Below, one piece after another: positions 2,137 to 31,757 of a stretch of DNA of 39,490 nucleotides. The stretch lies in NCBI GenBank assembly GCA_051745165.1, contig JBNJDU010000004.1, positions 1-39,490 of the forward strand, given 5' to 3'. Both the position numbers and the translations under genes were made by a program. Within the stretch, counting starts at the first letter, position 1. Each line of letters opens with the position of its first letter. A model generated the notes under the pieces. It saw only the letters and a program-made list of their open reading frames with translations, had not been told where the DNA came from and did no database searches. The stretch comes from Patescibacteria group bacterium (GTDB lineage: Bacteria; Patescibacteriota; Minisyncoccia; Minisyncoccales; PWPS01).

Positions 2137-2162
2137 ACACCTCTGAAAAGAGGTGTTTTTTT
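2137..2162 (+). terminator. Intrinsic terminator after atpD
   Basis: Stem ACACCTCT / AGAGGTGT with a GAAA-type loop, followed by a T7 run. It abuts the stop codon of the convergent gene. Confidence 0.8.
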
Positions 2163-5100
2163 ATTTACCGTAAAGTATTAATCTGCTAATTTGCATTTTT
2201 AAAGCTCTAAGTCTTCCCATATAAACTGTTTGATCTTCAGCTTCTTTCATTCTCTCAATTGAGTTTTCCAATTGTCTAGTTAAAACGTCTTTTGGAGGAT
2301 GTTCGCCGCCAAAGTCTACCGGTTCCTCAAAAGCTCCATCTTCCACCCAGTTCATAAATTCTTCGGGAGTAATTTCTCCACTTTCTAGTAGTTCAGCAAT
2401 ATCGCTTTCAACAAAGATTTCCTCTCCAAATTCTTGTTGGAAAGCCTCAAAAAAGTCCCAGCGGTCATTACGAGTAATAGTTCCCTCTATTTCGTAGGTA
2501 GTTTCTACTGAACCTTCGTTAACTTCAGTTGTTTTTTCAGAAGTAGTTTCAGTTTCAGCAGCTTCGGTTTCTCCTGCAACTTGTTCAGCTAATTCCTCTG
2601 CTTCTTCTCTTGATTCGCCCAAAGGACTGGTTTTTACTTCTCCACTTTCTTCTTGAATTTCTTGAATTCTCTCTCTAATAAGTTCTTCGGTCTCTTCTAC
2701 CGAAGAGCCTCTTTCTTTAGCTATCTCTTCAAGCATTTCTTCGTGCTTTGAATCTAGAAGTGTTTCGTATTGCGACTCTCCAAGACTATCGTTTTCTATT
2801 TTCTCTACCCAATCAGCTACTATTTCTTTTTCTCTTTCAGTTAATCCTTCATTAGCAACTTCTGCAGCTGTTGACTCTACTGCTCCTCCTTCTATATCTG
2901 CAAAAGAATCTTCAATCATAGTTTCCATTTCTTCATAAGAAACACCTTCAACTTTTGCTAGTTGTTTTACCCAAAGCTCTCGTTGACCACCCTCGGAAGT
3001 GTCGGCCATAAAGTCAAAACTAGCTTCACTCAGCTCTCCATTATGCATATCTTCCAGCCAGCTTTCAATATTTTGCAATTGTTCAGTTGAGCTTATTGAT
3101 TCGCTTTTCAGTCCATCAAGAATTAATTCATCAGCAATTTTTTCTTCTGTAAGTTCTCCGATTTCCGCTCCTCCAGTTATTGATTCTATTGTTTCACCAG
3201 TTATTTTAACATTTTTATGTTCGCTTAAGAATTCCCTAATTGCTTCGTTATTTTCTAAGATGTTAGCTACTTCTTCAGTTGAAAGTGATTCAGCTTTTTG
3301 CAGAGCTATTTCTAACTCACCATCAAGTAGGGGGGAGAAATCAACGCTATGCTCGCTACTAGCAAATAGATGATCTATAGTTTCTCCTTCTGCAAAATCA
3401 ATTCCAAAGCTTTGAGGGTTACTCTCTATAGTAGTTGTTATATGATCAATTACGTAGGTTTGCTCTGCTTCACTAAGAGAGGCAAATTCTTCACCAAGAC
3501 TGTCGTTTAGAAACTCTTCAGTAACGGACCAAATATTATCACTTGCTTCTATAGAATAACTAACCTCCTTTTCGGCAATTTGATCAACTGTTTCCAAAGC
3601 ATTTTCTTCAGTAGTTATTTTTAACTTTTCTAGCATTCTTTCAAATTCACTAATTTCTGATGAAGATGGTTCTCCTTTAAGGCTATCAATTTTATTACTA
3701 ATCCAGTCACTTATATTTTCCATCTTTTCTTGAACTGGCTCTAGCTCCATAACGTAATCTGCTACTCCGGCAAAGGCGGCAACCAAACCGGCGGAAAATA
3801 GAATTTCCTTAGCCATACTTCTATTTTCTTGTTCTAGCTTAGCCATTAAACCGGTCTCTGCTTTTTTAACAGTCTTCATCAAGTTAGCTTTTTCTTTAGT
3901 TTCATTACCAGGGATGTTCTCTGATCCTTCCAAACTAATCAGCATAATTTTTAATAAGTTGCTGTGCGGACCTCCGGCTTCCATCTTTTCTTTAAGTTGC
4001 TCTTTTTTATCTTTAATTAATTTTTCTGCCAACTCTTCAACATTAACCCCTTCTTCTCTTTCTTTTAATTCAACTGATAAATATCTAAATTGATCTTCAG
4101 CTCTTTCAAGAGCTTTTCTGTGCTGGGTAATTTCTGCGGATATTTCTCTTCTTTCTTTTTGAAAAAACCAAACACCTTCTTCCTTCATTTCTTCTTTTTC
4201 TCTTTGTAGCTCATTTAATCTTTCTTTAACAATTCCCATATTTGTATTTAAATCAGCCATTCGATTTTCAATCACTTCTTTTGACGATCTTTCTGAAGAT
4301 TCTATCTCTTCATTAATATTTTCTTTGAAGTTTTTATGTTTTTTAGTTTCATCCCATTTTTCAAGGCCGTAAGATCCTAATTTTAACCCAACACCAGCAA
4401 TTGCTCCACCAGTCATTGCTCCGGCAGTACCGGCTGTTTTTATAAATTGCGAAACTCCCGGCACAGTAGTGGCTAGTTTTTTAAGACCTAATGCACCACC
4501 AATTGCTCCCATTAAATTACGAGACTTCTTCCATCCCTTTTGAAGTATGCTTTTATTTGTTTCTTCAAAAGTATGTTTGTTTAAGTGTTCAACCAAATCT
4601 TCTGGGAGTCCTTCTTCGTTAACTATTTTTTCTTCTTTTTCTTCGTCACTATCCTTTTCTTCTTCTTGGTCGTTAGTTTCCTTCTTTTCTGATTTTTCTT
4701 CCTTTTTACTTTCAGCCTCTTCTTTATATAGTTCACTAACTCTTTTTCTTACTTCCTCTCTGTTTTCTTGCTGAATTTTCATTTCATCATTATTCAGCAT
4801 TTCATTATCAACAATCTTCTTAGCAACTTTGTCTATTTCTTCCTCCACATTTTTATCTGTTTTTTTCTCCTCTTTTCCCCCTTCTTTCTCTTTGCCATTT
4901 TCTTCTTCCTTATTATTATCCTCTTCTTCTAATTTTTTATCAATATTTTCTAAGTCTTCTAGTGCTATTTCTCTAGCTGTTTTTAATTTACCCTTTTTAC
5001 TATTTTTACTCTTTGGTTTTTCTTCAAATTGCTCTTCTAGTTCATTAAGTAGTTTTTCCTTTTCTTTTTCCATTTCTTTAATTTCCTTTTCTTTTTCTAC

Positions 5101-5550
5101 AAACTCTTCCTCAATTTCTTCATCACTACGCGTCTTAATTCCTTTTGGATCAACCTCTTTTTCTAAGTCTTCTAAGTCACTCATTAGTTTCTTTCTTTTG
5201 TCACTTATTTCCTTCAATCTACCTCTTTTTTCTTCATCTTTGATTTTTTCTTCCAATTTCAAAATGCGCTCCTCAATTTCATCAGGATATCCTTTTTCAA
5301 TGTATTCTTTCTCCAGTTCTTCTATTTTTCTTTTATTTTCTTCCATTTTAGACTCTAAAGTTTTGAAAGACTCCTCCATCTCTTTTTTTGCCTTTTCAAT
5401 TTGCTCTGGAGTTACTTCTAATCTATAACCTTCTGCAAACCTTCCTTTTTCATCTCTATTACTAATTTGCTTAGCACCATCTTCTTTTAGTTCCTTTTCT
5501 GTTTTTTTACGCTCCTTTTCTATTTTATTTTTATTAGTTTCTTCTTCCAT
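2161..5550 (-). CDS. Hypothetical giant (1129 aa) Glu/Lys-rich coiled-coil membrane protein
   Basis: Uninterrupted 3.4-kb ORF. It has a charged N-terminal third, Gly/Ala-rich hydrophobic segments (LMGAIGGALGL..., AGTAGAMTGGAIAGVGL..., ILFSAGLVAAFAGVADYV) and a very acidic C-terminal half. I recognise no family. Confidence 0.7.
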   Translation of the reverse strand: MEEETNKNKIEKERKKTEKELKEDGAKQISNRDEKGRFAEGYRLEVTPEQIEKAKKEMEESFKTLESKMEENKRKIEELEKEYIEKGYPDEIEERILKLEEKIKDEEKRGRLKEISDKRKKLMSDLEDLEKEVDPKGIKTRSDEEIEEEFVEKEKEIKEMEKEKEKLLNELEEQFEEKPKSKNSKKGKLKTAREIALEDLENIDKKLEEEDNNKEEENGKEKEGGKEEKKTDKNVEEEIDKVAKKIVDNEMLNNDEMKIQQENREEVRKRVSELYKEEAESKKEEKSEKKETNDQEEEKDSDEEKEEKIVNEEGLPEDLVEHLNKHTFEETNKSILQKGWKKSRNLMGAIGGALGLKKLATTVPGVSQFIKTAGTAGAMTGGAIAGVGLKLGSYGLEKWDETKKHKNFKENINEEIESSERSSKEVIENRMADLNTNMGIVKERLNELQREKEEMKEEGVWFFQKERREISAEITQHRKALERAEDQFRYLSVELKEREEGVNVEELAEKLIKDKKEQLKEKMEAGGPHSNLLKIMLISLEGSENIPGNETKEKANLMKTVKKAETGLMAKLEQENRSMAKEILFSAGLVAAFAGVADYVMELEPVQEKMENISDWISNKIDSLKGEPSSSEISEFERMLEKLKITTEENALETVDQIAEKEVSYSIEASDNIWSVTEEFLNDSLGEEFASLSEAEQTYVIDHITTTIESNPQSFGIDFAEGETIDHLFASSEHSVDFSPLLDGELEIALQKAESLSTEEVANILENNEAIREFLSEHKNVKITGETIESITGGAEIGELTEEKIADELILDGLKSESISSTEQLQNIESWLEDMHNGELSEASFDFMADTSEGGQRELWVKQLAKVEGVSYEEMETMIEDSFADIEGGAVESTAAEVANEGLTEREKEIVADWVEKIENDSLGESQYETLLDSKHEEMLEEIAKERGSSVEETEELIRERIQEIQEESGEVKTSPLGESREEAEELAEQVAGETEAAETETTSEKTTEVNEGSVETTYEIEGTITRNDRWDFFEAFQQEFGEEIFVESDIAELLESGEITPEEFMNWVEDGAFEEPVDFGGEHPPKDVLTRQLENSIERMKEAEDQTVYMGRLRALKMQISRLILYGK

Positions 5551-7318: not shown

Positions 7319-7423
7319 ATGAAAGAAATTATCTTTAACATATTAAATCCTCTTTTAATAGGTATTTTTCTGATGGGAGCTACTGTAGTTATTGTTGTGT
7401 TGAGTGATAAAATGACCAAATAA
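7319..7423 (+). CDS. Small single-TM peptide (34 aa, MKEIIFNILNPLLIGIFLMGATVVIVVLSDKMTK); not in the supplied ORF track
   Basis: SD AAAGGAGG lies 8 nt upstream of the ATG, the core is hydrophobic, and a strong terminator follows directly. Confidence 0.5.
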   Translation: MKEIIFNILNPLLIGIFLMGATVVIVVLSDKMTK

Positions 7424-7428
7424 AAAAA

Positions 7429-7454
7429 GAGAGCCAAAAGGCTCTCTTTTTTTT
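7429..7454 (+). terminator. Intrinsic terminator
   Basis: Stem GAGAGCC / GGCTCTC with an AAAA loop and a T8 run. Confidence 0.85.
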
Positions 7455-7575
7455 CTTTTTAAATCATAATAAAAAAATGAAAATAGGCTAAGCCTATCAA
7501 AGTCAATTGTTTACCTACAATCGAAATATACTATCTGTAAAGGATTCTCACAGATAACTACCCGCGACTAAAGGA

Positions 7576-7701
7576 TTGTTGTTTTAAGAACTCCGCGGAG
7601 CTGATTTAGCATGGTTTTTGGCTTTGCCAAAATAAATCAGCGAGCGAAGAAAACCTAAATTATCGCTGGTAATTCTTAAGGTTTGATTCTTAAAACAACA
7701 A
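7576..7701 (+). ncRNA. Candidate structured RNA element, copy A (family shared with 27175-27393 and 31660-31718)
   Basis: A 15-bp perfect closing helix (7576-7590 / 7687-7701) encloses nested helices and a TCGCTGG-loop hairpin. The architecture is conserved with copy B while the helix sequences differ. Strand is tentative. Confidence 0.4.
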
Positions 7702-7712
7702 ACCGAAGGAGA

Positions 7713-9866
7713 TTATTTTTTGTAATCACAATCCTTATCTAAACATACCTCCTTACCCTTCTTTTCAACTACAATAGAGTCGCACTCAGGACAAGTCTCT
7801 CCAGTTGGGCGATAGTTAGTTCCAAATTTACATTTAGGATAATTGTCACAACCCCAAAATATCTTTCCTTTTCTGTTTACCCTTTTAATAATAGTTCCTT
7901 CGTCACATTTAGGACAGGCAATGCCAGTATCTTTAATTAGTTTTTCTGTGTTTTTACAGTCCGGATAATTTGTACACCCCCAAAACATACCGTATCTACC
8001 TTGTTTTAGTTTCATTTCTGATCCGCACTCACTACACTTCTTAGGTCCAAACTCTTCTTTCATTTTTTTAATCTCTTCTTTTTCATCATCCATTGGTTCA
8101 GTATATTCACACTCAGGGAAGTTGCTACAAGCTTTAAATTTTCCGTTTTTACCTAACTTTATTACTATTTTCCCGTCTTTACATTCAGGACAATCTTGGT
8201 CGGTTTCTTTTAAAATGTTTTGCTTGTCTAGAGATTCTTCCTTTTCTTTTACATTCTTAATAAAAGGTTCGTAAAAGTCCTTAATCATCTTTTTCCAGTC
8301 TTCTTTACCGTCAGCCACTTTATCTAATTTTTCTTCCATCTTGGCAGTAAATTCAAGATCTACAATATCGGGAAAATGATTTACTAGTAGGTTGCTAACT
8401 ACAATCCCAACATCAGTAGCATGAAGCTTCTTCTTTATCTTCTTTACATAGTTTCTGCTTTGTATGGTTGCTAAAGTTGGCGCGTATGTAGAAGGTCTAC
8501 CGATATCATTCTTTTCTAATTCTTTAATTAATGAAGCTTCACTGTAACGGGCGGGAGGTTTAGTCTCCTTTTCTTGAGTTTCTAGCTTTTCTAAATCTAA
8601 AATGTCTCCTTTAGATAGTTCCGGTAAGGTTTGCTCTTTCATTTTTATTGGGTAAACCTTCATGAAGCCATTGAAGAGAACTTGTTGACCAGAAGCTCTA
8701 AATAAATATTGCTTAGCTTCTACATCAATCTTTTTTCTTTCGATTACTGCGGAAGTCATTTGAGATGCTAAAAATCTCTTTCTAATAAGGTCGTAAAGCT
8801 TTTTCTCTTGAGCCTTGCCTTTAATAGTTTTCTTTTTTGGATTCGTTGGTCGAATTGCTTCGTGCGCTTCTTGCGTTCTTCCTTTTGATTTGAAGTTTCT
8901 CGATTTATAATATTTTTTACCGTACTTATCAATAATTATATCCTTTGCCGCTTTTTTCGATGATTTAGATAAATTAAAAGAGTCAGTTCTGTGGTAGGTA
9001 ATTAAACCTTTTTCGTAAAGAGTTTGGGCTAATCTCATTGTATACTTTGAAGAGTAGTTCAATCTTATTGAGGCATCTTGCTGCAATGTGCTGGTTGTAT
9101 ATGGAGGATAAGGACTTCTTTTCTTTTCTGATTTTCTAACATCAGCTACTTTATAATCTACTCCTTCTTCTTTTAATTCTTTTTTATATTTTTCAAATTC
9201 TCCCTTTTTAGTAATTCCCGGTTTGGAAATTTTATCACCATCTATCTTTATTAATCTAGATCTAAAAGAACTTCCATTTTTTAGATGGGCATAAATTAAC
9301 CAGTAAGTAACTGGATCAAAGTCTCTAATCTCCTTTTCTTTTTCTGCCACTAATCTAAGAGCAACTGATTGCACTCTTCCGGCAGATAGAGAAAAGTCTC
9401 TATATATCTTTTTCCATAAAAGAGGGGAGAGCTTGTATCCTACAAGTCTATCCAAAACTCTTCTTGCTTGTTGAGCGTTAACCAAGTCTTCATCAATATC
9501 TCTAGGATCTTCCAAGGCGTTTAGTATTGCTTCTTTGGTAATCTCGTGAAAAGATACTCGTTGATAATCTTTTAAATCTAATGCTTCTTTCAGGTGCCAA
9601 GAAATAGCTTCTCCCTCTCGATCTGGGTCAGTACTTAAGATTATCTGCTCTGCATCAGAAAGCTCCTTTTTTAGCTTCTTAATTGTCTTTTTTTGCCTTT
9701 TAGGAATAACATAATTTGGTTCAAAATCATTTTCTGTATCTACTCCTAATTTTTTCTGCGGCAAATCTCTTATATGTCCCTTAGTAGAGAGGATCTTATA
9801 TTCATCTCCTAAAAATTTACTAAGAGTTTTCGATTTAGTGGGCGACTCAACTAAAATTAATTTCAT
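7713..9866 (-). CDS. topA: DNA topoisomerase I
   Basis: 717 aa with an N-terminal TOPRIM (LVESPTKSKT...DPDREGEAISWH), the catalytic-Tyr region, and several C-terminal Cys4 zinc-ribbon repeats (CPECK..C..FPEC, CSECG..C..YPDC, CPKC..C..YPKC). Confidence 0.95.
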   Translation of the reverse strand: MKLILVESPTKSKTLSKFLGDEYKILSTKGHIRDLPQKKLGVDTENDFEPNYVIPKRQKKTIKKLKKELSDAEQIILSTDPDREGEAISWHLKEALDLKDYQRVSFHEITKEAILNALEDPRDIDEDLVNAQQARRVLDRLVGYKLSPLLWKKIYRDFSLSAGRVQSVALRLVAEKEKEIRDFDPVTYWLIYAHLKNGSSFRSRLIKIDGDKISKPGITKKGEFEKYKKELKEEGVDYKVADVRKSEKKRSPYPPYTTSTLQQDASIRLNYSSKYTMRLAQTLYEKGLITYHRTDSFNLSKSSKKAAKDIIIDKYGKKYYKSRNFKSKGRTQEAHEAIRPTNPKKKTIKGKAQEKKLYDLIRKRFLASQMTSAVIERKKIDVEAKQYLFRASGQQVLFNGFMKVYPIKMKEQTLPELSKGDILDLEKLETQEKETKPPARYSEASLIKELEKNDIGRPSTYAPTLATIQSRNYVKKIKKKLHATDVGIVVSNLLVNHFPDIVDLEFTAKMEEKLDKVADGKEDWKKMIKDFYEPFIKNVKEKEESLDKQNILKETDQDCPECKDGKIVIKLGKNGKFKACSNFPECEYTEPMDDEKEEIKKMKEEFGPKKCSECGSEMKLKQGRYGMFWGCTNYPDCKNTEKLIKDTGIACPKCDEGTIIKRVNRKGKIFWGCDNYPKCKFGTNYRPTGETCPECDSIVVEKKGKEVCLDKDCDYKK

Positions 9867-24264: not shown

Positions 24265-27003
24265 ATGAATATGCCTCAAATGCCTGGTGCCAACTTTACG
24301 CACAAGGCACAGCAAGCAATACTTTTTTCGCAAAAGATTGCTGGAAAACAAAATAAGAAAAAAATATCGCCATTGCATTTACTTTACTCACTTCTTGCTC
24401 AAGAAGATTCTACTGTTAGCACTTTACTTGAAAAGAAAGGAGTTGATACTGACCAATTAAAAGTAAGAGTAGAAAACGCAATGGATAAAGGAGAAGATAT
24501 TATTTCTCCTAGCGAACAGTCAAGCCCTGGAAGAGGACAGTTTTTCCTTTCTCAGTCAATGGCTGCTGTTTTGAAAAAAGCTTCTGCGGAAGCTAAGGAG
24601 ATGGGTGATAAATATATGTCTGTTGAACATCTCTTTTTATCTCTCTTGCAAGTAGATTCTAATGCTAGAAATTTGATTGAATCGGCTGACTTTCTTCCTG
24701 CTCCAAAAGGAGGTCCGGAAGAACCAGATGAAGTTGATTTGAGCTATGATGGATTAAAAGAATCTTTAACTGAAATTAGAGGAGGAGAGAAGATTACCGA
24801 TCCGCAACCGGAATCAAAAATTCAAACAATTGAAAAGTATACTATCAACTTAACGGATTTAGCAAAAGAAGGAGAAACAGATCCGGTTATCGGAAGAGAT
24901 GAGGAAACTAGAAGATTAATGCAAGTACTTTCAAGAAGGACTAAAAATAATCCAGTATTAGTTGGTGAAGCGGGAGTAGGTAAGACAGCTATAGTAGAAG
25001 GGTTAGCTCAACGAATTGCTAAGAAACAAGTTCCTGAATCATTGAAAAATAAAGAAGTTATTTCTCTTGACTTAGGTTCTTTAGTTGCTGGAACTCGCTA
25101 CAGAGGTGAATTTGAAAATCGAATGAAGGCTTTAATGAAGGAAATTAAGAAGAATAAGGATAAGTATGTTCTTTTCATTGATGAGCTTCACACCTTAGTA
25201 GGAGCTGGAGCAGCAGAAGGATCAATCGATGCATCCAACTTACTCAAGCCAGATTTAGCTCGTGGAAAACTACGTGCGATTGGTGCTACTACTCAAAAAG
25301 AATATCAGAAGTATATTGAAAAAGATTCTGCACTAGAAAGAAGATTTCAACCAATTCAAGTTGATGAACCTACTGAAGAAGAGACAGTATTGATTTTAAG
25401 AGGAATTAAAGAAAAGTATGAGTTGCATCACGGAGTAAAGATTGATGACTCAGCACTTCAAGCGGCAGCTAAATTGTCTAACAAACATATTAATGATAGA
25501 CAGCTCCCCGACAAGGCAATCGACCTTATGGACGAAGCGATGAGTTCGCTTCGACTTGAAGTTGAATCGCAACCTAAAGAATTAGAAGATTTACGTAAAG
25601 AAATTCAAACTTTAGAAATTGAAAAACAAGCCCTAAAAGAAGGTGATGATGAGAAACGAAAAAAAGCAGTGGAGAGAGAATTAGCAGATCTTAAGGAAAA
25701 GGCCAATGATTTATCTGCTCGATGGAAAACGGAAAGAGAAACTATTGATCAAATTAAAGAACTCAAAGAGCAGATTGATCGATTAGAATACAAGGCAGAA
25801 AAAGCGGGTCAAGAAGCAGAATTAGAAAAAGTAGCAAAAATTAAATACGGAGAAATTCCAACTCTTAAGAAAAAACTACAAAAAGAAGAGAAAAAGCTAG
25901 CTAACATTCAAAAAGAAAGACCTATCTTGAAAGAAACTGTTTCTGAAGAAGATATTGCTGATGTTATTTCTAGATGGACTGGAATTCCTTCCAATAAACT
26001 TTTAGAAGAAGAAGCGAAGAAATTAAAGAGAATGGAAAAGATTATCTCTAAAAGAGTTATTGGTCAAGATAAAGCAATATCAGCAATCTCTAATGCAATT
26101 AGAAGATCAAGAGCTGGTGTTGCTGAAGAAGGAAAACCACTTGGATCATTCCTATTTTTAGGTCCAACGGGAGTAGGTAAAACAGAAACTGCTCGCGCTT
26201 TAGCTGAATTCTTATTTGATGATGAAGATGCAATGATTAGATTGGATATGTCTGAATATATGGAAAAACACTCTGTATCTAAAATGATTGGTGCTCCTCC
26301 TGGATATGTAGGCCATGATGATTCTGGACAACTAACCGAGCAAATTAGAAGAAAACCTTACAGTGTGGTACTTATTGATGAAATTGAAAAAGCTCACAAG
26401 GAAGTCTTCAATATGCTTCTTCAAGTGTTCGAAGACGGAAGACTTACCGACAATAAAGGAAGAGAAGTTTCTTTCAAAAATGCAATTATTGTTATGACTT
26501 CTAATGCTGGTTCAGAATATATTTCTGAATCCGGAAGTTTAGGATTTTCTGCAAAGGAAAGAAAAGAACAAAAAAGAGAAATGGTTGAAGAAAGTGTAAT
26601 GGACGAACTTAAAAAACAATTCCGACCAGAATTCTTAAATCGTATTGATGAGATTGTTGTCTTTAATCATCTTGAAATGGATCAGGTTAAAGAAATTGTC
26701 GGCCTTGAACTGGATAAAGTAAAAGAAAGAGTTATGTCTAATAGTGGAGTAAAGCTAGAGTTTAAAAACTCAGTAAAGAGACATTTAGCCGAAAAAGGAT
26801 TTGATCGAGATATGGGAGCAAGACCTTTAAAACGAAGAATTCAAAAAGATATTCTCAATCCACTTGCTGTTAAGCTTATTTCTGGAAATGTATTATCTGG
26901 AGAAAAGATAACAGTAAGAATTAGAGATGGTGAGATTGATTTTGAAACGCCTCAAGAAGTAAGAGAGGGTAAGCCAGCCCAAAAGGAAGCATTGGTAAAG
27001 TAA
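24265..27003 (+). CDS. clpB: ATP-dependent chaperone ClpB
   Basis: 912 aa with a Clp N-domain, two AAA+ modules ([18 protein letters not shown]) and a long middle coiled-coil. Confidence 0.95.
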
Positions 27004-27023
27004 ATCTTTAAAAGAAAGCAAAA

Positions 27024-27046
27024 GCCCGCCACTCGGCGGGCTTTTT
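27024..27046 (+). terminator. Intrinsic terminator after clpB
   Basis: Stem GCCCGCC / GGCGGGC with an ACTC loop and a T5 run. Confidence 0.9.
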
Positions 27047-27055
27047 ATATATACT

Positions 27056-27130
27056 GTCATTCTAAGCTTATATTTCTAGTCATTCTGAGGGTATATAAAC
27101 TGTCATTCTGAGGCCGCAGGCCGAAGAATC
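27056..27130 (+). repeat. Three direct GTCATTCT(A/G)AG repeats at 23-nt spacing; the last forms a hairpin with CCGAAGAAT
   Basis: GTCATTCT starts at 27056, 27079 and 27102. ATTCTGAGGCC-GCA-GGCCGAAGAAT (27105-27129) is an imperfect palindrome with a central tandem G/A mismatch. Confidence 0.7.
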
Positions 27131-27174
27131 CCTATCAAAAAAACACAGACCTTATTTTATAACCTTTAGTGAAA

Positions 27175-27393
27175 AACACCTCTTACAAGAAACTCTCGCA
27201 GAAAAATTGGCATGGTTTTCAGTTTACTGAAACAATTTTCCGAGAGCGTAAGATCCAAATCATCGCTGGATGATTTGAGATGTGGTTCTTGTAAAGAGGT
27301 GTTCAAACTTACCGCACAATCTCCGAATCGTCGCTGGCGATTCTTGAGAATTGGTTTTCAAGAAGTAATACCCGAGCATACTTGGTAGAGATT
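27175..27393 (+). ncRNA. Candidate structured RNA element, copy B (long form with two modules)
   Basis: A 17-bp closing helix (27175-27191 / 27286-27303, one bulge) encloses nested helices. There are two TCGCTGG-loop hairpins, and the unpaired motifs are shared with copy A. Strand is tentative. Confidence 0.4.
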
Positions 27394-27483
27394 CCACAAA
27401 ACCAAAATAAAACACCCCCTAAAAAGCCTAAGTCGCAGTTTCTATAAAATAGTAGGTGAATGAATTGAAATTAGTTATTTTTT

Positions 27484-28092
27484 ATGCAACAATTAACCAA
27501 AGAGAAACAAAAATTTATGAAAGAAATAAAACAAAATTTAAAGGACTTATTAGAAAAAGAGGGTGTTATGCGGGGAGAGGTTATCCTTAATCATATTAAC
27601 TTTATTAGAGATAAAGAAGGAGATGATGGAGTGCAAAGATTAAAAAGCTCTTTCCAAGAATTAGATTATTCTCTAGATTTAGATATAGATCCAATGGATT
27701 GGGAAAAGGTTTCTATAGGTTCAGCAATTACTGTCTTAGCTAATGATATATTTGAATGGGAAAAGGAAGATGTTAAAGATATGGGAAGATTTGCTGCAAA
27801 AACATTAACTACAAACAAGTTAATGCTTAGAGAAATTCCTGATTTGGACGCATTACTTAACAGAGTAAATGATTATTGGAAAGCAGTTATTGATGTTGGA
27901 GAGCTTTCTGTTGAAAGTTCAAAAAAAGGAGAGGCTAAGTTAACGCTAAAAGGGTTTAACTATCATCCTCTGGACTTTATATTTATTTCTGGCTATATTG
28001 AAGTAATTTTTGATTTATTTACTAAAGAAAAAGCCTCTATAGAATATAATTTAGAAGGTAAAAATTGTAATTTTTTAATAACTTGGAACTAA
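27484..28092 (+). CDS. Hypothetical cytoplasmic protein (202 aa), first gene of the efflux operon
   Basis: The ORF ends 1 nt before the adaptor gene. No family recognised with confidence; any ligand-binding (V4R/H-NOX-like) assignment would be speculation. Confidence 0.5.
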   Translation: MQQLTKEKQKFMKEIKQNLKDLLEKEGVMRGEVILNHINFIRDKEGDDGVQRLKSSFQELDYSLDLDIDPMDWEKVSIGSAITVLANDIFEWEKEDVKDMGRFAAKTLTTNKLMLREIPDLDALLNRVNDYWKAVIDVGELSVESSKKGEAKLTLKGFNYHPLDFIFISGYIEVIFDLFTKEKASIEYNLEGKNCNFLITWN

Positions 28093-28093
28093 A

Positions 28094-29689
28094 ATGAAAA
28101 AGAAAATAATAATTGGATTAATAATATTAGCAGTAATTACTGGACTTTTCTTTCTGCTTAGAAATGGCGATCCAGAACGAGAAAGTACAGTTGTAGAAGA
28201 AAGAGAATTAATTGAAGAAGTTTTTGAAACCGGAACGGTAAAGTCTGGAGATAATATAAATCTCTCTTTTCAATCTGGAGGAACTATTGAACGGATTCCT
28301 GTTTCTGAAGGGCAAGATATTTCTAAAGGCGATTTAGTTGCCTCTTTAGACAAACAAGATCTTGTAAATCAAAGAAATAAAGCAGCTCAACAATTAATTG
28401 CTGCCGAAGCAGAATTAGAATCAGTACAACAAGGAGGAAGAGAGGAAGAGATTGACTCTTTAGAGAATAGATTAGAAGAAGCCGAGGAGTCTGTGAAACT
28501 TGCAGAAAAATCTCTACAAGAAGCAGAAGACTCTCAAGAAACTAATTTGCAAAACACTTATTCCGGAACACCTTCTTTAGTAAATAGAGCTTATCTTTTA
28601 TCCAAAAGCGTTAAGGATGAATATAAAGATATAAGAGATCAGTATTTTGTTGGGTTTTATCTTTCTGATACTTATGTAGCTAGGAGAGCAATAGGTGATA
28701 TAGAAGATAGTTATGAAGATTTAAGAGATATTTCTAGGAGTTTGGAAACTTCTTCTAGCTTTAATCAAATGGCTAAAGGTCTAAACCAGGCAGAAGAAAC
28801 ATTTACTGTTATTGAAAATTCTATAGAAACTGTTATTGAAGTTTCAGAAATTGATTTTTACGAAAGAAGATTTACCGAAGAAACTAATCAGTATTTATGG
28901 GATTCAAAAGAAAAAGTTTCTGAAATGAAATCTAATATTGTAGGTAAAAAAGGAGAAATTGAATCTACTGAAGACTCGACTGAATCTGCTATTACAACTG
29001 CTGAAAGCAACTTAGCTTCTGCAAAATCAAAAAGAAATGAACTTAAAGACAACTTGGATCAAATGAAGCTTGGCGGTAGAGATTCACAAGTCAGAGCAGC
29101 TGAAGCAAATGTAGAAGTGGCAAAAGAAGACCTTGAATTAGCAAATAGAAACCTGCAAAGAGGGGATCTTTACTCTCCAGCAAGCGGAAAGGTTTCAAAG
29201 ATTCATTACACTGAAGGTGAAAAAGCTCAAGCTCAGAGTCCCGTTGTTACTGTTTTAGGTGAAGAACAATACCATTTAGAAGTAAATATTTATGAAGGAG
29301 ACATAGTGGGAGTAGAAGTAGGTGATCCGGTTACAATTGAATTAGTTCCTTTCTCTAACCAAGAATTTTCAGGTGAGGTTACTTCAATCCAAGAAACAGG
29401 AGAACTAATTGAAGGAGTTGTTTATTACGAAACTAAAATTAGCATTGACAATCCTCCGGAAAAGATAATGCCCGAAATGACTGCCGATACCACTATTCAA
29501 ACTAATAAAATTGAAGCTCTCTCTTTACCTAGAGAAGCAATAAGAAGAGATGGGTCCAAAAGATTTGTAAGGGTTTTAGAAGATGGTGAGGAGGTAGAAA
29601 AAGATATAGAAGTTGGAATAACTGATGCTTATGGATATGTAGAAATAAAATCAGGACTCTCCGCAGGAGACGAAGTATTGATTGATTAA
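28094..29689 (+). CDS. HlyD/MacA-family periplasmic adaptor (membrane fusion) protein
   Basis: N-terminal TM anchor, biotinyl-lipoyl-like half motifs (GTIERIPVSEGQDISKGDLVASLD ... LYSPASGKVSKIHYTEGE), and a long coiled-coil insert. Confidence 0.85.
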   Translation: MKKKIIIGLIILAVITGLFFLLRNGDPERESTVVEERELIEEVFETGTVKSGDNINLSFQSGGTIERIPVSEGQDISKGDLVASLDKQDLVNQRNKAAQQLIAAEAELESVQQGGREEEIDSLENRLEEAEESVKLAEKSLQEAEDSQETNLQNTYSGTPSLVNRAYLLSKSVKDEYKDIRDQYFVGFYLSDTYVARRAIGDIEDSYEDLRDISRSLETSSSFNQMAKGLNQAEETFTVIENSIETVIEVSEIDFYERRFTEETNQYLWDSKEKVSEMKSNIVGKKGEIESTEDSTESAITTAESNLASAKSKRNELKDNLDQMKLGGRDSQVRAAEANVEVAKEDLELANRNLQRGDLYSPASGKVSKIHYTEGEKAQAQSPVVTVLGEEQYHLEVNIYEGDIVGVEVGDPVTIELVPFSNQEFSGEVTSIQETGELIEGVVYYETKISIDNPPEKIMPEMTADTTIQTNKIEALSLPREAIRRDGSKRFVRVLEDGEEVEKDIEVGITDAYGYVEIKSGLSAGDEVLID

Positions 29690-30389
29690 AAATATGGCAA
29701 AACCACAGATACAATTAAAAAAAGTTTGGAAGACTTATCAAGTAGGCAAGATTAATTTAGAGGTTTTGAAAGGTGTTGATTTAGAAATAGAAAAAGGTGA
29801 GTTTATAGTTCTTCTAGGTCCTAGTGGATCAGGTAAATCTACTCTTTTAAATATAATGAGTTGTCTTGATGTGCCCAGCAAGGGGCATGTTTACTTAGAT
29901 GGTCAAGATGTATCACTTTTAAGTGAAGATGAGCTTGCCGAGGTTAGAGGTAGAAAAATTGGTTTTGTGTTTCAACAATTTAATTTATTGCATCACCTTT
30001 CTGCTCTGGAAAACGTAACTATGCCTGCCGTCTTTCAAAAAATGGATGAAAAGGAAAGAAAAAGAAGAGCTAATGATTTATTAGACTCAATGGGTTTGAA
30101 AGATAGAGTTGATCACACCCCCAACGAACTTTCTGGAGGAGAAAAGCAAAGAGTAGCTATTGCTCGTAGTTTGATTAATGATCCTGAAATTGTAGTTGCT
30201 GATGAGCCTACCGGAGAAGTGGATACTAAAACCGGTGAAAAAATTATGAAAATATTCACCGATCTTCATGATGAAGGAAGAACCATAATTATTGTTACTC
30301 ATGATGTGGAGCTAGTTAATTACGCAACAAGAGTAATTAGAATTAGAGATGGAGAATTAGAACCGGAAAAACAACAAAAAAATGATTGA
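29682..30389 (+). CDS. ABC transporter ATP-binding protein (MacB/LolD-like)
   Basis: Walker A GPSGSGKST, signature LSGGEKQRVAIARSL, Walker B IVVADEPTG. An alternative start is the ATG at 29694. Confidence 0.92.
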   Translation: MIKNMAKPQIQLKKVWKTYQVGKINLEVLKGVDLEIEKGEFIVLLGPSGSGKSTLLNIMSCLDVPSKGHVYLDGQDVSLLSEDELAEVRGRKIGFVFQQFNLLHHLSALENVTMPAVFQKMDEKERKRRANDLLDSMGLKDRVDHTPNELSGGEKQRVAIARSLINDPEIVVADEPTGEVDTKTGEKIMKIFTDLHDEGRTIIIVTHDVELVNYATRVIRIRDGELEPEKQQKND

Positions 30390-31593
30390 GTATTTTAAAT
30401 TAGCTTATAGAAATATTAAAAAAAGAGCCCTTCGCAGTTGGCTGACTATTTTAGGTATTATAATTGGTGTATTTTTAGTAGTATCACTTCTTTCTTTATC
30501 CGAAGGATTGAATAATGCAGTAATGGGTCAGCTTCAAGCTGTAGGAACTGATATTGTAATGATAATGCCTGGTAGTGGTGGCTTAGACGCTACTTCTTTT
30601 GTTGGTGGAGCAGAACTTAAAGACAGACACATCCAGGCCATAGAAAGGACTAGAGGAGTGGAGGTTGTTCTTGAAATGCCTTACACCGCACAAACTCTTC
30701 GCTTTCGAGATAGAACAGAAACTAATTTAGTTACGGGACTGGATATGCAAGATGGATTAGATATGGCAATAAATGATATGGGGTTTGAGATAAGAGAAGG
30801 AGAGTTTCCTAGACCGGGAAGAAGAGAAGTTCTCTTGGGTCACTTAGTGCCTAGAGATACTTTTCCGGATATTGAACCGGGAGATCAAATAACCGCTAGT
30901 GGAAGAAAGTTTACCGTTGCTGGAATTCTGAAGTCTTTAGGAAATAACCAAGATGATAATTCAATAATTTTTGATCTTGAAGATTATAGGGATGTAACCG
31001 ACACTACTGAAGGAACACCCGTAGCTGTTGCTCGCGTGGAAGAAGGGCAAGATGTTAATCGAGTAGTAGCTAATATTGAAAGGTCACTGGATGAAGTAGG
31101 GAAGAGAAAAAGAGGCGAAGATTCCCCCAGCTTTTCAGTTATGAGTAGTGAGGCAATGATTGAAATGGTAGAGTCTATTTTAGGGTTAATTCAAGCCGGA
31201 ATTATTGCTTTTGCCAGTATTGCTATTATTGTTGGGGCAATTGGTATTATGAACACAATGTTTACTTCCGTTAGAGAAAGAACTAAAGAAATCGGAGTTC
31301 TAAAAGCAGTCGGAGCGAAGAAAAAACACATTCACTCTATATTTTTAGTTGAATCGGGAATGATCGGATTAGTCGGAGGAACATTAGGAATTATTTTAGG
31401 GATAGGTTTCGCTAAATTAGGAGAGATAGCGATTGCCCAAGCAGGAATTGGACTTACTCTGGAAGCTCATTTCTCTGTAAATATGATACTTATCACTTTG
31501 TTTTTCAGTTTTCTTTTAGGTTGCGGTAGTGGATATTTTCCAGCTAAAAAAGCAGCCAAACTTAATCCGGTAGATGCTTTAATGTATGAATAA
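30382..31593 (+). CDS. ABC transporter permease, FtsX/MacB type
   Basis: TM1, a large extracytoplasmic domain, and three C-terminal TM helices with the RTKEIGVLKAVGA motif. Confidence 0.88.
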   Translation: MIEYFKLAYRNIKKRALRSWLTILGIIIGVFLVVSLLSLSEGLNNAVMGQLQAVGTDIVMIMPGSGGLDATSFVGGAELKDRHIQAIERTRGVEVVLEMPYTAQTLRFRDRTETNLVTGLDMQDGLDMAINDMGFEIREGEFPRPGRREVLLGHLVPRDTFPDIEPGDQITASGRKFTVAGILKSLGNNQDDNSIIFDLEDYRDVTDTTEGTPVAVARVEEGQDVNRVVANIERSLDEVGKRKRGEDSPSFSVMSSEAMIEMVESILGLIQAGIIAFASIAIIVGAIGIMNTMFTSVRERTKEIGVLKAVGAKKKHIHSIFLVESGMIGLVGGTLGIILGIGFAKLGEIAIAQAGIGLTLEAHFSVNMILITLFFSFLLGCGSGYFPAKKAAKLNPVDALMYE

Positions 31594-31659
31594 ATGCGAA
31601 GAATATTACTTCTGAAAAGTTCTCGGAAAGGATTTAGCACAGTTTATTTTGAGGGATAT

Positions 31660-31718
31660 CTCTTGCAAGAAACTCTCGCAGGTGATTTAGCAATTTTAAC
31701 TATGCGCGAGCATACTTG
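31660..31718 (+). ncRNA. Short (internally deleted?) member of the structured element family, copy C
   Basis: 21/22 nt identity to 27180-27201; 10/10 (TGATTTAGCA) to 7602-7611; 12/12 (CGAGCATACTTG) to 27373-27384. The ends can pair (CAAG/CTTG, CTCGC/GCGAG). Confidence 0.3.
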
Positions 31719-31730
31719 ATAAATATATAT

Positions 31731-31757
31731 AAAAAAAGCCCGGTTTTCCGGGCTTTT
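31731..31757. terminator. Bidirectional intrinsic terminator
   Basis: An A7 run, stem AGCCCGG / CCGGGCT with a TTTT loop, and a T4 run. It serves the ABC operon (+) and the small ORF (-). Confidence 0.85.

Follow-up and report, generated by a model that had tools for sequence, protein, structure and literature searches.

Enterobacterial repetitive intergenic consensus sequences (ERIC), also known as intergenic repeat units (IRU), are imperfect palindromes of about 127 bp that lie between genes, are often transcribed, occur in either orientation and at positions that differ between related species, and carry internal insertions at fixed sites. Here, we describe a structured element that behaves much like these repeats. 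It is present as two full copies (A and B) and three fragments within 39 kb of DNA from a Patescibacteria group bacterium (contig JBNJDU010000004.1, positions 1 to 39,490; this entire stretch is referred to as the window in the following). Patescibacteria genomes comprise roughly 1 Mb and hold little non-coding DNA. The fold of the element is real and under constraint, and its distribution is that of a repeat, not that of a gene leader or of a syntenic small-RNA gene. Since this distribution is patchy, with copies that are swapped between relatives, nested and degraded, we favor the view, at a probability of about 0.5, that it represents a non-autonomous, self-nesting element that is mobile or copies itself and is recognized by a copying machinery through the fold of its single strand.

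The element is not contained in Rfam 15, and we found no description of it in the literature searched. It resembles ERIC, repetitive extragenic palindromic sequences and bacterial interspersed mosaic elements (REP/BIME), and miniature inverted-repeat transposable elements (MITEs) in its behavior, but differs from all of them in its branched, covarying core, in loop motifs that are conserved across phyla, and in the nesting of copies into their own kind. With ERIC/IRU, REP/BIME, Correia elements and repeat units of pneumococcus (RUP), it shares a non-coding nature, a length of about 100–200 nt, multiple copies in intergenic spacers, a long hairpin, the occurrence of fragments, either orientation, and positions that vary between related species. 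However, it has no sequence relation to these repeats; its hairpin is capped by a three-way junction, its GC content ranges from 35 to 66%, its helices covary instead of being conserved in sequence, and its copies nest at one internal region. Like MITEs, it is small, free of open reading frames (ORFs), multi-copy, nested, patchy among relatives and bounded by what may be terminal inverted repeats, the arms of helix P1. Yet these repeats are not sequence-conserved between subfamilies, being ~70% alike within the B-type (window copy B and copies in L121 and L137; L numbers denote individual loci) and unrelated between subtypes, and the conserved part lies internally, not at the ends. Furthermore, neither a target-site duplication nor a parent insertion sequence with the same ends was seen in the contigs examined; the spacers in relatives were otherwise diverged and no exact empty site was obtained. 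Twintrons and group II introns likewise insert as structured elements at a defined position of their own kind, in a Russian-doll arrangement, but span at least 600 nt, as compared to about 125–190 nt here, and the element has no domain V/VI, ORF, exon context or Rfam intron match. Finally, like the Rfam ‘motif’ families HEARO and Acido-Lenti-1, the element is defined by covariation and conserved loops only, with no experimental function. Most of these families have a conserved gene context, which the element does not.

A comparison with Rfam confirmed that no known RNA family matches. At gathering score, the 4227 models of Rfam 15 gave 0 matches in the window; among 18 member loci, the sole match was a tRNA outside the element in L070. 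In E-value mode, searches of positions 26950–27550 and 7400–7800 returned only two chance-level matches over the element at E < 10 (best 17.5 bits, E 2.4). Nor did the literature on structured RNAs, RNA motifs, MITEs or small RNAs of the candidate phyla radiation (CPR)/Patescibacteria, or a search for the string GTCATTCTGAG, yield a description of the element.

Copy B is situated between the terminator of clpB (27020–27045) and p202, an ORF of 202 aa for which no Pfam family was matched and a single homolog was found besides the window's own protein. An earlier note, made from the sequence alone, had proposed a set of nested helices for its first module (27175–27303), and the same helix order and unpaired motifs, with different helix sequences, for copy A (7576–7701). 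Both proposals are borne out: all pairings of module 1 are present in the sequence and are recovered by free-energy folding, which also gives copy A the same architecture, and the motifs GCATGGTTTT and TCGCTGG are equally spaced in the two copies. The + strand of copy B (27170–27310) folds with –48.2 kcal/mol (z = –5.9, 0/200 shuffles as good) and the – strand with z = –7.0; for copy A (7570–7710), the respective z-scores are –5.6 and –7.4, so that both strands of the element fold nearly equally well.

As a single strand of the modelled polarity (the + strand of the window), each member is predicted to form a long rod, made up of a short basal helix P0, a tandem G-A and a P1 helix of 13–25 bp, whose sequence is free as long as it pairs. 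The modelled rod is capped by a three-way junction with two arms, the first being P2-P3-[GCAUGG]-P4 and the second the P5 hairpin with its loop YCGCUGG(A). A motif with the consensus AAGCGAAG precedes P1, and a tail with the consensus CGAGCGC(AC)UU follows it; in well-preserved members, motif and tail form P0, a helix of 2–4 bp, together with the tandem G-A next to P1, for instance in GGC-GA-AG[P1]...[P1]C-GA-GCC. A kink-turn at the P0/P1 junction was considered and rejected on direct reading, as the tandem GA/GA is present but the bulge comprises 0–1 nt in place of the required 3 nt.

The same earlier note had pointed out that the fold and its unpaired motifs are conserved although the helices differ in sequence, and this is substantiated by strong covariation in 33 homologs. 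When a hand-made P1–P5 structure is placed on eight members of type 1 (the window-like type, see below), 89.8% of the cells are paired, compared to at most 53% when the 3' partners are shifted against the 5' strands, and 28 of the 43 pairs show compensatory changes. In the 33-member alignment, which was itself fitted to the covariance model, 86.8% of the cells are paired (at most 53% when shifted) and 42/43 pairs are compensatory, values that none of 500 shuffles reach. By helix, these 33 homologs show compensatory changes in 13/13 pairs of P1 (90% paired), 9/9 of P3, 6/6 of P4 (97% paired) and 10/10 of P5 (92% paired); P2 is mostly conserved in sequence, and its register is ambiguous in other subtypes, including type 2. 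RNAalifold on plain MAFFT alignments recovered P4 and P5 only, because P1–P3 were misaligned, which was remedied by the hand-made structure and the covariance model. As for the unpaired motifs, GCATGGTTT, GAGCG and TCGCTGG were fixed by the search pattern, so their invariance is not evidence; copies that only the model detected show the loop variants GCAGGG, GCUUGG, GCUCGG, CCGCUGG and CCGUUGGA. When the strand is read as modelled, there are 56 G-U pairs compared to 34 A-C pairs, and 7 compared to 0 in P4 alone. Judging by the sequences, there is modest support for a single strand of the window's + polarity as the relevant form.

These homologs were collected in several steps. A strict pattern (AAGAA..GCATGGTT..TCGCTGG), scanned against a genome collection with one genome per species, gave 41 matches, 40 of them by chance (about 29 expected) and one real, L035, in a metagenome-assembled genome (MAG) labelled Candidatus Saccharibacteria. 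On metagenome and MAG contigs, the pattern GCATGGTTT-N21-29-GAGCG-N12-20-TCGCTGG retrieved 101 loci, of which ~45 bear the element. A covariance model built from the hand-made structure on eight type-1 sequences (R1) found 33 matches at E < 1e-3 in these loci, and a second model built from these 33 (R2) found 49 at the same threshold, with 0 in the 40 chance loci (about 280 kb) and 0 in three close relatives. In the window, copies A (114 bits) and B (124 bits) alone were recognized as full copies, both on the + strand.

The element consists of a ~125-nt core and extends over about 150–190 nt with its basal flanks. In type 1, P3 is Watson-Crick paired up to GCAUGG; in the GC-richer type 2, GAGCG/GAGCGA takes the place of the inner half of P3 and is able to form G-A, A-G, G-C, C-G and G-A pairs. 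Type 1 encompasses A-type members (window copy A, L035, the second copy of L137) and B-type members (window copy B, L121, the first copy of L137, L144, L088, L070, L146), which occur together in the genome of the window and in tandem in L137; two or more copies on one contig, in tandem or head to head, are common. One subtype (L048/L092 617–750 and L087 5335–5450) has an additional hairpin without mismatches (CCCCGUUAGAGGCAGUGCCUCUAACGGGG) around P2/P3 and, as the only one, the sequence CCAGCGA just upstream of P5, which is complementary to the P5 loop UCGCUGG and could form an alternative hairpin. The GC-rich member in L094 adjoins a MacB-type permease that is 76–79% identical to proteins named Aminicenantes, Acidobacteria or Terriglobales, and the family is therefore not limited to Patescibacteria. 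By these sequence assignments, it appears to span intergenic spacers of Patescibacteria and of at least one Acidobacteria-like contig. A BLAST search with 27150–27400 against phage and plasmid collections found no match, and a pattern scan of viral contigs gave 0 matches.

The comparison of close relatives shows that the family, as far as sequences can tell, turns over fast, with copies being gained, lost, swapped and reduced to fragments. At the site of copy A, next to topA, we scanned syntenic stretches of four relatives with 77–88% identical topA (L145, L146/L147, L148, L149/L150; about 14–22 kb each plus two short contigs) without filters. L146/L147 has a B-type copy with a different P1 at exactly the position of copy A, 12 nt past the topA stop codon and convergent to it, and the leader and tail around this copy are ~90% identical to the flanks of copy A. 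L145, L148 and L149 contain 0 copies and feature a plain GC-rich terminator after topA instead. Elsewhere, L035 is syntenic with positions 13.5–22.6 kb of the window (46–90% amino-acid identity), and its spacer between HIT and S21 holds an A-type copy that is missing from the window; in the nearest relative for the clpB/p202 junction (L001/L002, p202 69% identical), this junction is a spacer of 155 nt without the element.

Neither the orientation of the copies nor their neighbors follow a rule. With respect to the two flanking genes, 8 copies are opposite/opposite, 7 same/same, 5 opposite/same and 3 same/opposite, so that all four classes are present. Several copies fill operon spacers in the direction opposite to the gene strand, 9–45 nt from start or stop codons, for example between mraZ and rsmH (L085) or between RNase H and ComEC (L086). 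No gene association was found among 130 neighboring ORFs, which are housekeeping in nature and of which no more than two share a Pfam family; transposases, integrases and reverse transcriptases were neither among their commonest families nor in the window ORFs examined.

Two further loci, L119 and L059, show full copies located between complementary 5' and 3' fragments. The fragments pair with –38.3 kcal/mol in L119 (shuffles: –21.9 ± 3.7) and with –33.0 kcal/mol in L059 (–18.0 ± 3.5), with 0/500 shuffles as good in either case; in the outermost shell of the two nests (Z), complementarity is not significant, 92 and 87 of 500 shuffles being as good. Solitary 5' fragments just upstream of full copies were found in L088, L137 (three), L059 and L119. 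They stop a few bases past GCAY(N)G plus UUUU, which places the recurrent break point in the P4 region. From their arrangement, these nests show that a resident copy is evidently split in its P4 region by an incoming one, so that its 5' half comes to lie upstream of the new copy and its 3' half downstream. A different kind of break is seen in two Hainich groundwater contigs, L089 (410–712) and L095 (1340–1488), which have the same copy and the same 3' flank and differ from the P1 5' arm outward; L089 has a second copy at a distance of 33 nt in head-to-head orientation, and the element thus marks the break point of a rearrangement.

A nest of this kind also accounts for the remainder of the copy B locus. 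The earlier note had regarded copy B as a long form with a second folded module, and a related sequence downstream (copy C, 31660–31718) as a short form. Yet module 2 does not stand out as a folded unit (27310–27400, z = –1.7, 11/200 shuffles as good), and the covariance model, a 3'-half profile and cofolding identify the ‘long form’ as a full copy followed by the 3' half (X3') of a second, 5'-truncated copy, X. The first of the module's hairpins (27321–27349) is upheld as the P5 arm of the family; the hairpin TTGAGAA-TTGG-TTTTCAA and the closing AATCTC/GAGATT helix have no counterpart in homologs. The match of module 2 to the covariance model is partial (model positions 70–104, that is P5 only; 14.4 bits, E 0.055), and the nhmmer 3'-half profile finds X3' with E 0.0036. 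The matching 5' half, X5', starts one base past the stop codon of the macB-like gene, 4.2 kb from X3'. Its duplex with 27305–27390 reaches –34.3 kcal/mol, compared to –18.0 ± 3.5 in 500 shuffles (0 as good), and cofolding the two halves (5' half taken at 31594–31645) yields P0, P1, P2 and P5. Copy C, in turn, is composed of the 5' 33 nt of a B-type copy and the family 3' tail CGAGCATACTTG. It is sub-threshold for the full covariance model (7.9 bits, E = 5), matches 27180–27201 at 21/22 positions (31660–31681), and is followed by a bidirectional terminator at 31734–31757. Lastly, an alignment reveals a degenerate relic of the X 5' half upstream of copy B (CCGAAGAAU...CACAGACCUUAUUUU).

Taken together, the X5'/X3' cofold, the make-up of copy C and the relic upstream of B argue that both loci go back to one composite, X5'-B-X3'. 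In our reading of the sequence, positions 27050–27390 comprise a degenerate X5' remnant, the full copy B and X3', and positions 31594–31718 another copy of this composite that has decayed in a different way. A B-type copy would have nested in the older copy X, and the composite would then have been duplicated to both sides of the operon between these loci and decayed differently at each. The two mutually exclusive conformations suggested earlier do not survive this analysis, as they were based on copy C, which is a deletion remnant, and on a 3' tail that is part of the truncated copy. The underlying complementarity of CAAG..CTCG with CGAGCATACTTG does exist, but links the 5' strands of B with the tail of X; the pairing is not conserved, and other members share no more of it than CGAG/CUCG, two strings that recur as conserved motifs of the family.

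If the element is mobile or self-copying, as we favor, a trans-acting enzyme would copy it through a single-stranded intermediate (ssDNA or RNA), and the conserved fold and loops would act as recognition or cleavage features for this enzyme, not as regulators of neighboring genes. Whereas the fold, its covariation, the polarity bias, the patchy distribution, the nesting, the fragments and the lack of gene association are shown, we infer that the element moves, that it does so via a single strand, and that its loops serve in recognition. The covariation had been taken to exclude a MITE-like element, a conclusion that fails: presence and absence among close relatives, nesting, fragments and random orientation are all the behavior of a repeat or mobile element.

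Several observations weigh against mobility or self-copying. In the contigs examined, no mobilizing enzyme, no target-site duplication and no exact pair of empty and filled sites were found. Near-identical full copies within one genome were not seen either, only the 5' parts of B and C (21/22 nt) and the tails being near-identical; since 2–3 copies were sampled per contig, recent transposition is not demonstrated. The bias of G-U over A-C pairs is only modest. Furthermore, compensatory change in orthologs and unpaired motifs conserved across phyla are to be expected of an RNA that is useful to its host, and the orthologous copies in L048 and L087, whose cores are ~95% identical, indeed differ by two double compensatory changes in the outer P1. 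The 110 nt upstream of copy A, including a promoter-like site, are ~90% conserved in L146, which fits an independent small-RNA gene. Finally, perfect long arms could arise without selection, by template-switch correction of quasi-palindromes, a process that could also account for the P1 changes between L048 and L087. Insertion into pre-existing palindromes, considered as another source of the variable P1 arms, was rejected, as the orthologous copies show compensatory change instead.

A possible, if rather doubtful, alternative is that the copies constitute a family of independently transcribed small-RNA genes of about 150–190 nt, with ends paired in P0. Working in trans, these RNAs would, for instance, join a protein in a ribonucleoprotein or sequester, as a sponge, a protein reading the GCAUGG and UCGCUGG loops, and A- and B-type paralogs would be kept in the same genome. 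The strong covariation, the conserved unpaired motifs, the tandem G-A motifs typical of RNA and the preference for G-U on one strand would all suit such genes, as would the defined 5' motif and 3' tail with their ability to pair, the compensatory P1 changes between L048 and L087, and the co-occurrence of A-type and B-type copies in the window and in L137. So would the conserved leader of copy A, which is preceded by a promoter-like TTGTTT-16-TACTAT at 7507–7534 (noted on direct reading; promoter scans gave no consistent site and did not flag this one), and the same-strand intrinsic terminators that follow copy C and L064. However, many copies occupy operon spacers on the opposite strand, where a separate promoter and terminator could not be accommodated in the 9–45 nt to the neighboring genes. 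Terminator-like sites downstream on the same strand (4/33) are rarer than those upstream on the opposite strand (8/33). Moreover, positions vary among close relatives, and nested and fragmentary copies are frequent.

It is less probable that the element is a cis-acting intergenic repeat of the REP/BIME or ERIC kind that benefits its host as a long mRNA hairpin in either orientation, serving as a 3' stabilizer, as a site for RNase III or other processing, or as a substitute for a terminator. Many copies do lie 9–19 nt past a stop codon, the element in the window and in L146 takes the place of the GC-rich terminator that follows topA in L145, L148 and L149, and the near-equal folding of both strands as well as the random orientation would be in keeping with this role. 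Yet a mere hairpin needs neither a three-way junction, nor loop motifs shared across phyla, nor a G-U strand bias, and most copies have no U-tract after P1 on either strand.

Control of the downstream p202-macAB-like operon by a riboswitch or other cis-regulatory leader with two conformations, which comes close to the idea of the earlier note, is highly improbable: copy B does lie upstream of and on the same strand as this operon, and the L094 member abuts a MacB-type transporter operon, but the closest relative keeps the clpB-p202 junction without the element, orientation and neighbors are unrelated across 33 members, and the alternative pairing uses the tail of a truncated neighboring copy and is not conserved.

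More speculatively, and tentatively, the family might constitute an undescribed class in more than one phylum that homes via a folded single-stranded intermediate, both into P4/J3-4 of existing copies and to intergenic sites elsewhere, mobilized by a widely conserved, possibly host-encoded enzyme that reads GCAUGG/YCGCUGG, or else an RNA that is abundant, encoded in multiple copies and of use to the cell in bacteria of reduced genome. If the element is mobile, its conserved loops offer a direct handle on its copying machinery; if it serves the cell as an RNA, it would rank among the most abundant non-coding RNAs of Patescibacteria. For annotation, masking is advisable, as the element yields spurious ORFs, assembly breakpoints and apparent ‘riboswitch-like’ leaders.

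A range of other known systems was considered and rejected. REP sequences associated with RAYT transposases are palindromes of 20–40 nt with a 5' GTAG-type tetranucleotide; the element comprises at least 125 nt, has a branched core and lacks such a motif. Integron attC sites have R''/L''...L'/R' boxes (RYYYAAC ... GTTRRRY) and lie in gene-cassette arrays, but the ends of the element read AAGCGAAG ... CGAGCGC, and its neighbors are housekeeping genes in mixed orientation. Retron msr-msd would fit the closing repeat, but none of the copies adjoins a reverse transcriptase gene. The class of cis-regulatory leaders and riboswitches was discarded for the missing fixed position and orientation, the unrelated housekeeping neighbors and the absence at the orthologous L001 site. 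For 5S rRNA, the signal recognition particle (SRP) Alu domain, Y RNA, 6S RNA, tRNA-like structures, hammerhead and other ribozymes, group II domain V, T-box, IS200/IS605 ends and bridge RNA, there were no defining motifs, no partner gene or no Rfam match. For a possible guide role of P1, only a chance-level match of 13 nt (2147–2160) was found.

Table 1. Positions of the element copies, their parts and associated features in the window, with the observations on which each row is based
Feature	Position	Strand	Basis and remarks
5' flank motif of copy B, UUUAGUGAAAA	27164–27174	+	Flank alignment of type-1 members; family consensus AAGCGAAG; weak in copy B
P1 5' strand of copy B, closing helix of 17 bp with one bulge	27175–27191	+	Sequence, folding, covariation
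P2 5' strand, CUCUC	27193–27197	+	Folding, homolog alignments
3-nt bulge, GCA	27198–27200	+	Copy B
P3 5' strand, GAAAAAUUG	27201–27209	+	Folding; P3 covaries
J3/4, unpaired asymmetric loop GCAUGG	27210–27215	+	In other members GCAGGG, GCUUGG, GCUCGG, GCACAG
P4, apical hairpin UUUUCAG-UUUA-CUGAAA	27216–27232	+	Folding, covariation
P3 3' strand	27233–27241	+	Folding, covariation
P2 3' strand, GAGAG	27242–27246	+	Folding, homolog alignments
Junction, CGUAAG	27247–27252	+	Copy B
P5, two-part hairpin with conserved loop UCGCUGGA (27263–27270)	27253–27281	+	Folding, covariation
P1 3' strand of copy B	27286–27303	+	Sequence, folding, covariation
X3', 3' half of a second, 5'-truncated copy (‘module 2’)	27304–27385	+	Covariance model, nhmmer, cofold
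X3' junction	27311–27320	+	Part of 27304–27385
X3' P5 hairpin, loop UCGCUGG	27321–27349	+	26-nt identity to P5 of L035
X3' P1 3' strand, UUUUCAAGAAGUAAUAC	27355–27371	+	Complementary to the P1 5' strand of X5'
X3' 3' tail, CCGAGCAUACUUGG	27372–27385	+	Family tail
X5', 5' half matching X3'	31594–31650	+	Motif AUGCGAAG, P1 5' AAUAUUACUUCUGAAAAG, P2 5' UUCUCGGAA, P3 5' AGGAUUUA, GCACAG, UUUAUUUU
Copy C, B-type 5' fragment (31660–31692) and 3' tail CGAGCAUACUUG (31707–31718), middle missing	31660–31718	+	5'-half profile, E 0.012
Copy A, full A-type member	7576–7701	+	114 bits; P2 is CGC/GCG with GGA/GA internal loop; P5 loop is 7-nt UCGCUGG
Leader of copy A (CUGUAAAGGAUUCUCACAGAUAAC...)	7535–7575	+	Direct reading; resembles the 5' fragment of an older copy
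Mini hairpin CAUUCU-GA-GGCC-GCA-GGCC-GA-AGAAUC	27104–27130	+	Direct reading; stem, tandem G-A and GGCC helix as at the base of full elements, closed by a triloop

Upstream of copy B, the mini hairpin listed in Table 1 was compared with type-2 bases of the form GGC-GA-AG[P1]...[P1]C-GA-GCC, and the hairpin region 27055–27130 may, by its sequence, be a triloop-closed basal module of the element family, that is, a related mini-element. Three direct repeats (TGTCATTCT(A/G)AG) lie at 27055–27112, two of the three directly after TATATA-like boxes, and the last one runs into the mini hairpin; a comparable string (GTCATCCTGAG...GAAGATC) is found upstream of the L121 copy. A distance of 12 nt separates the end of copy A from the stop codon of topA, which is convergent to it. 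On the other side, towards p67, there are terminator-like hairpins at 7482–7498 and 7422–7453, one on the – strand (GATAGGCTTAGCCTATT plus a T-run) and one bidirectional; a transcript reading through from topA would thus include the antisense strand of copy A before it reaches a terminator.

The window is a segment of a bacterial chromosome with a GC content of 34% and a gene set of the Patescibacteria type, including genes for V-type ATPase subunits, topA, pth, lepB, hisS, S21, ybeY, ftsA/Z, nrdD/G, clpB and a macAB-like exporter. Homologs of its topA at ~50% identity bear names including Nealsonbacteria, Pacebacteria, Moranbacteria and ‘Patescibacteria group’. A tRNA/tmRNA scan of the window found none. 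Copies of the composite element lie on both sides of the p202-HlyD-ABC-MacB operon (28094–31593), and on the Acidobacteria-like contig L094 (1260–3182), 28 nt separate a member from the end of the preceding ABC ATPase gene, which belongs to a MacB-type operon; the proximity to MacB-type operons in both cases may be coincidence.

Two ORFs of the window are worth recording. One, of 1129 aa (2161–5550, – strand), has counterparts of 983–1184 aa in L145, L148 and L149, for which no Pfam match is on record, and has kept its position beside a 106-aa ORF, between the V-ATPase genes and DUF389. The other, of 28 codons (MTKKDVGKLTEKLISIKKKQLPKKKVRN, about 31861–31775, – strand), is below the 60-aa limit of the ORF scan. 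It is preceded by a strong promoter-like TTGACA-17-TAAAAT (31960–31932, – strand), a leader hairpin (AUCGGGAUGGGGAG...CAUCCCGAC) and a ribosome-binding site (AAAGGAGG), and it ends at the bidirectional terminator (31734–31757).

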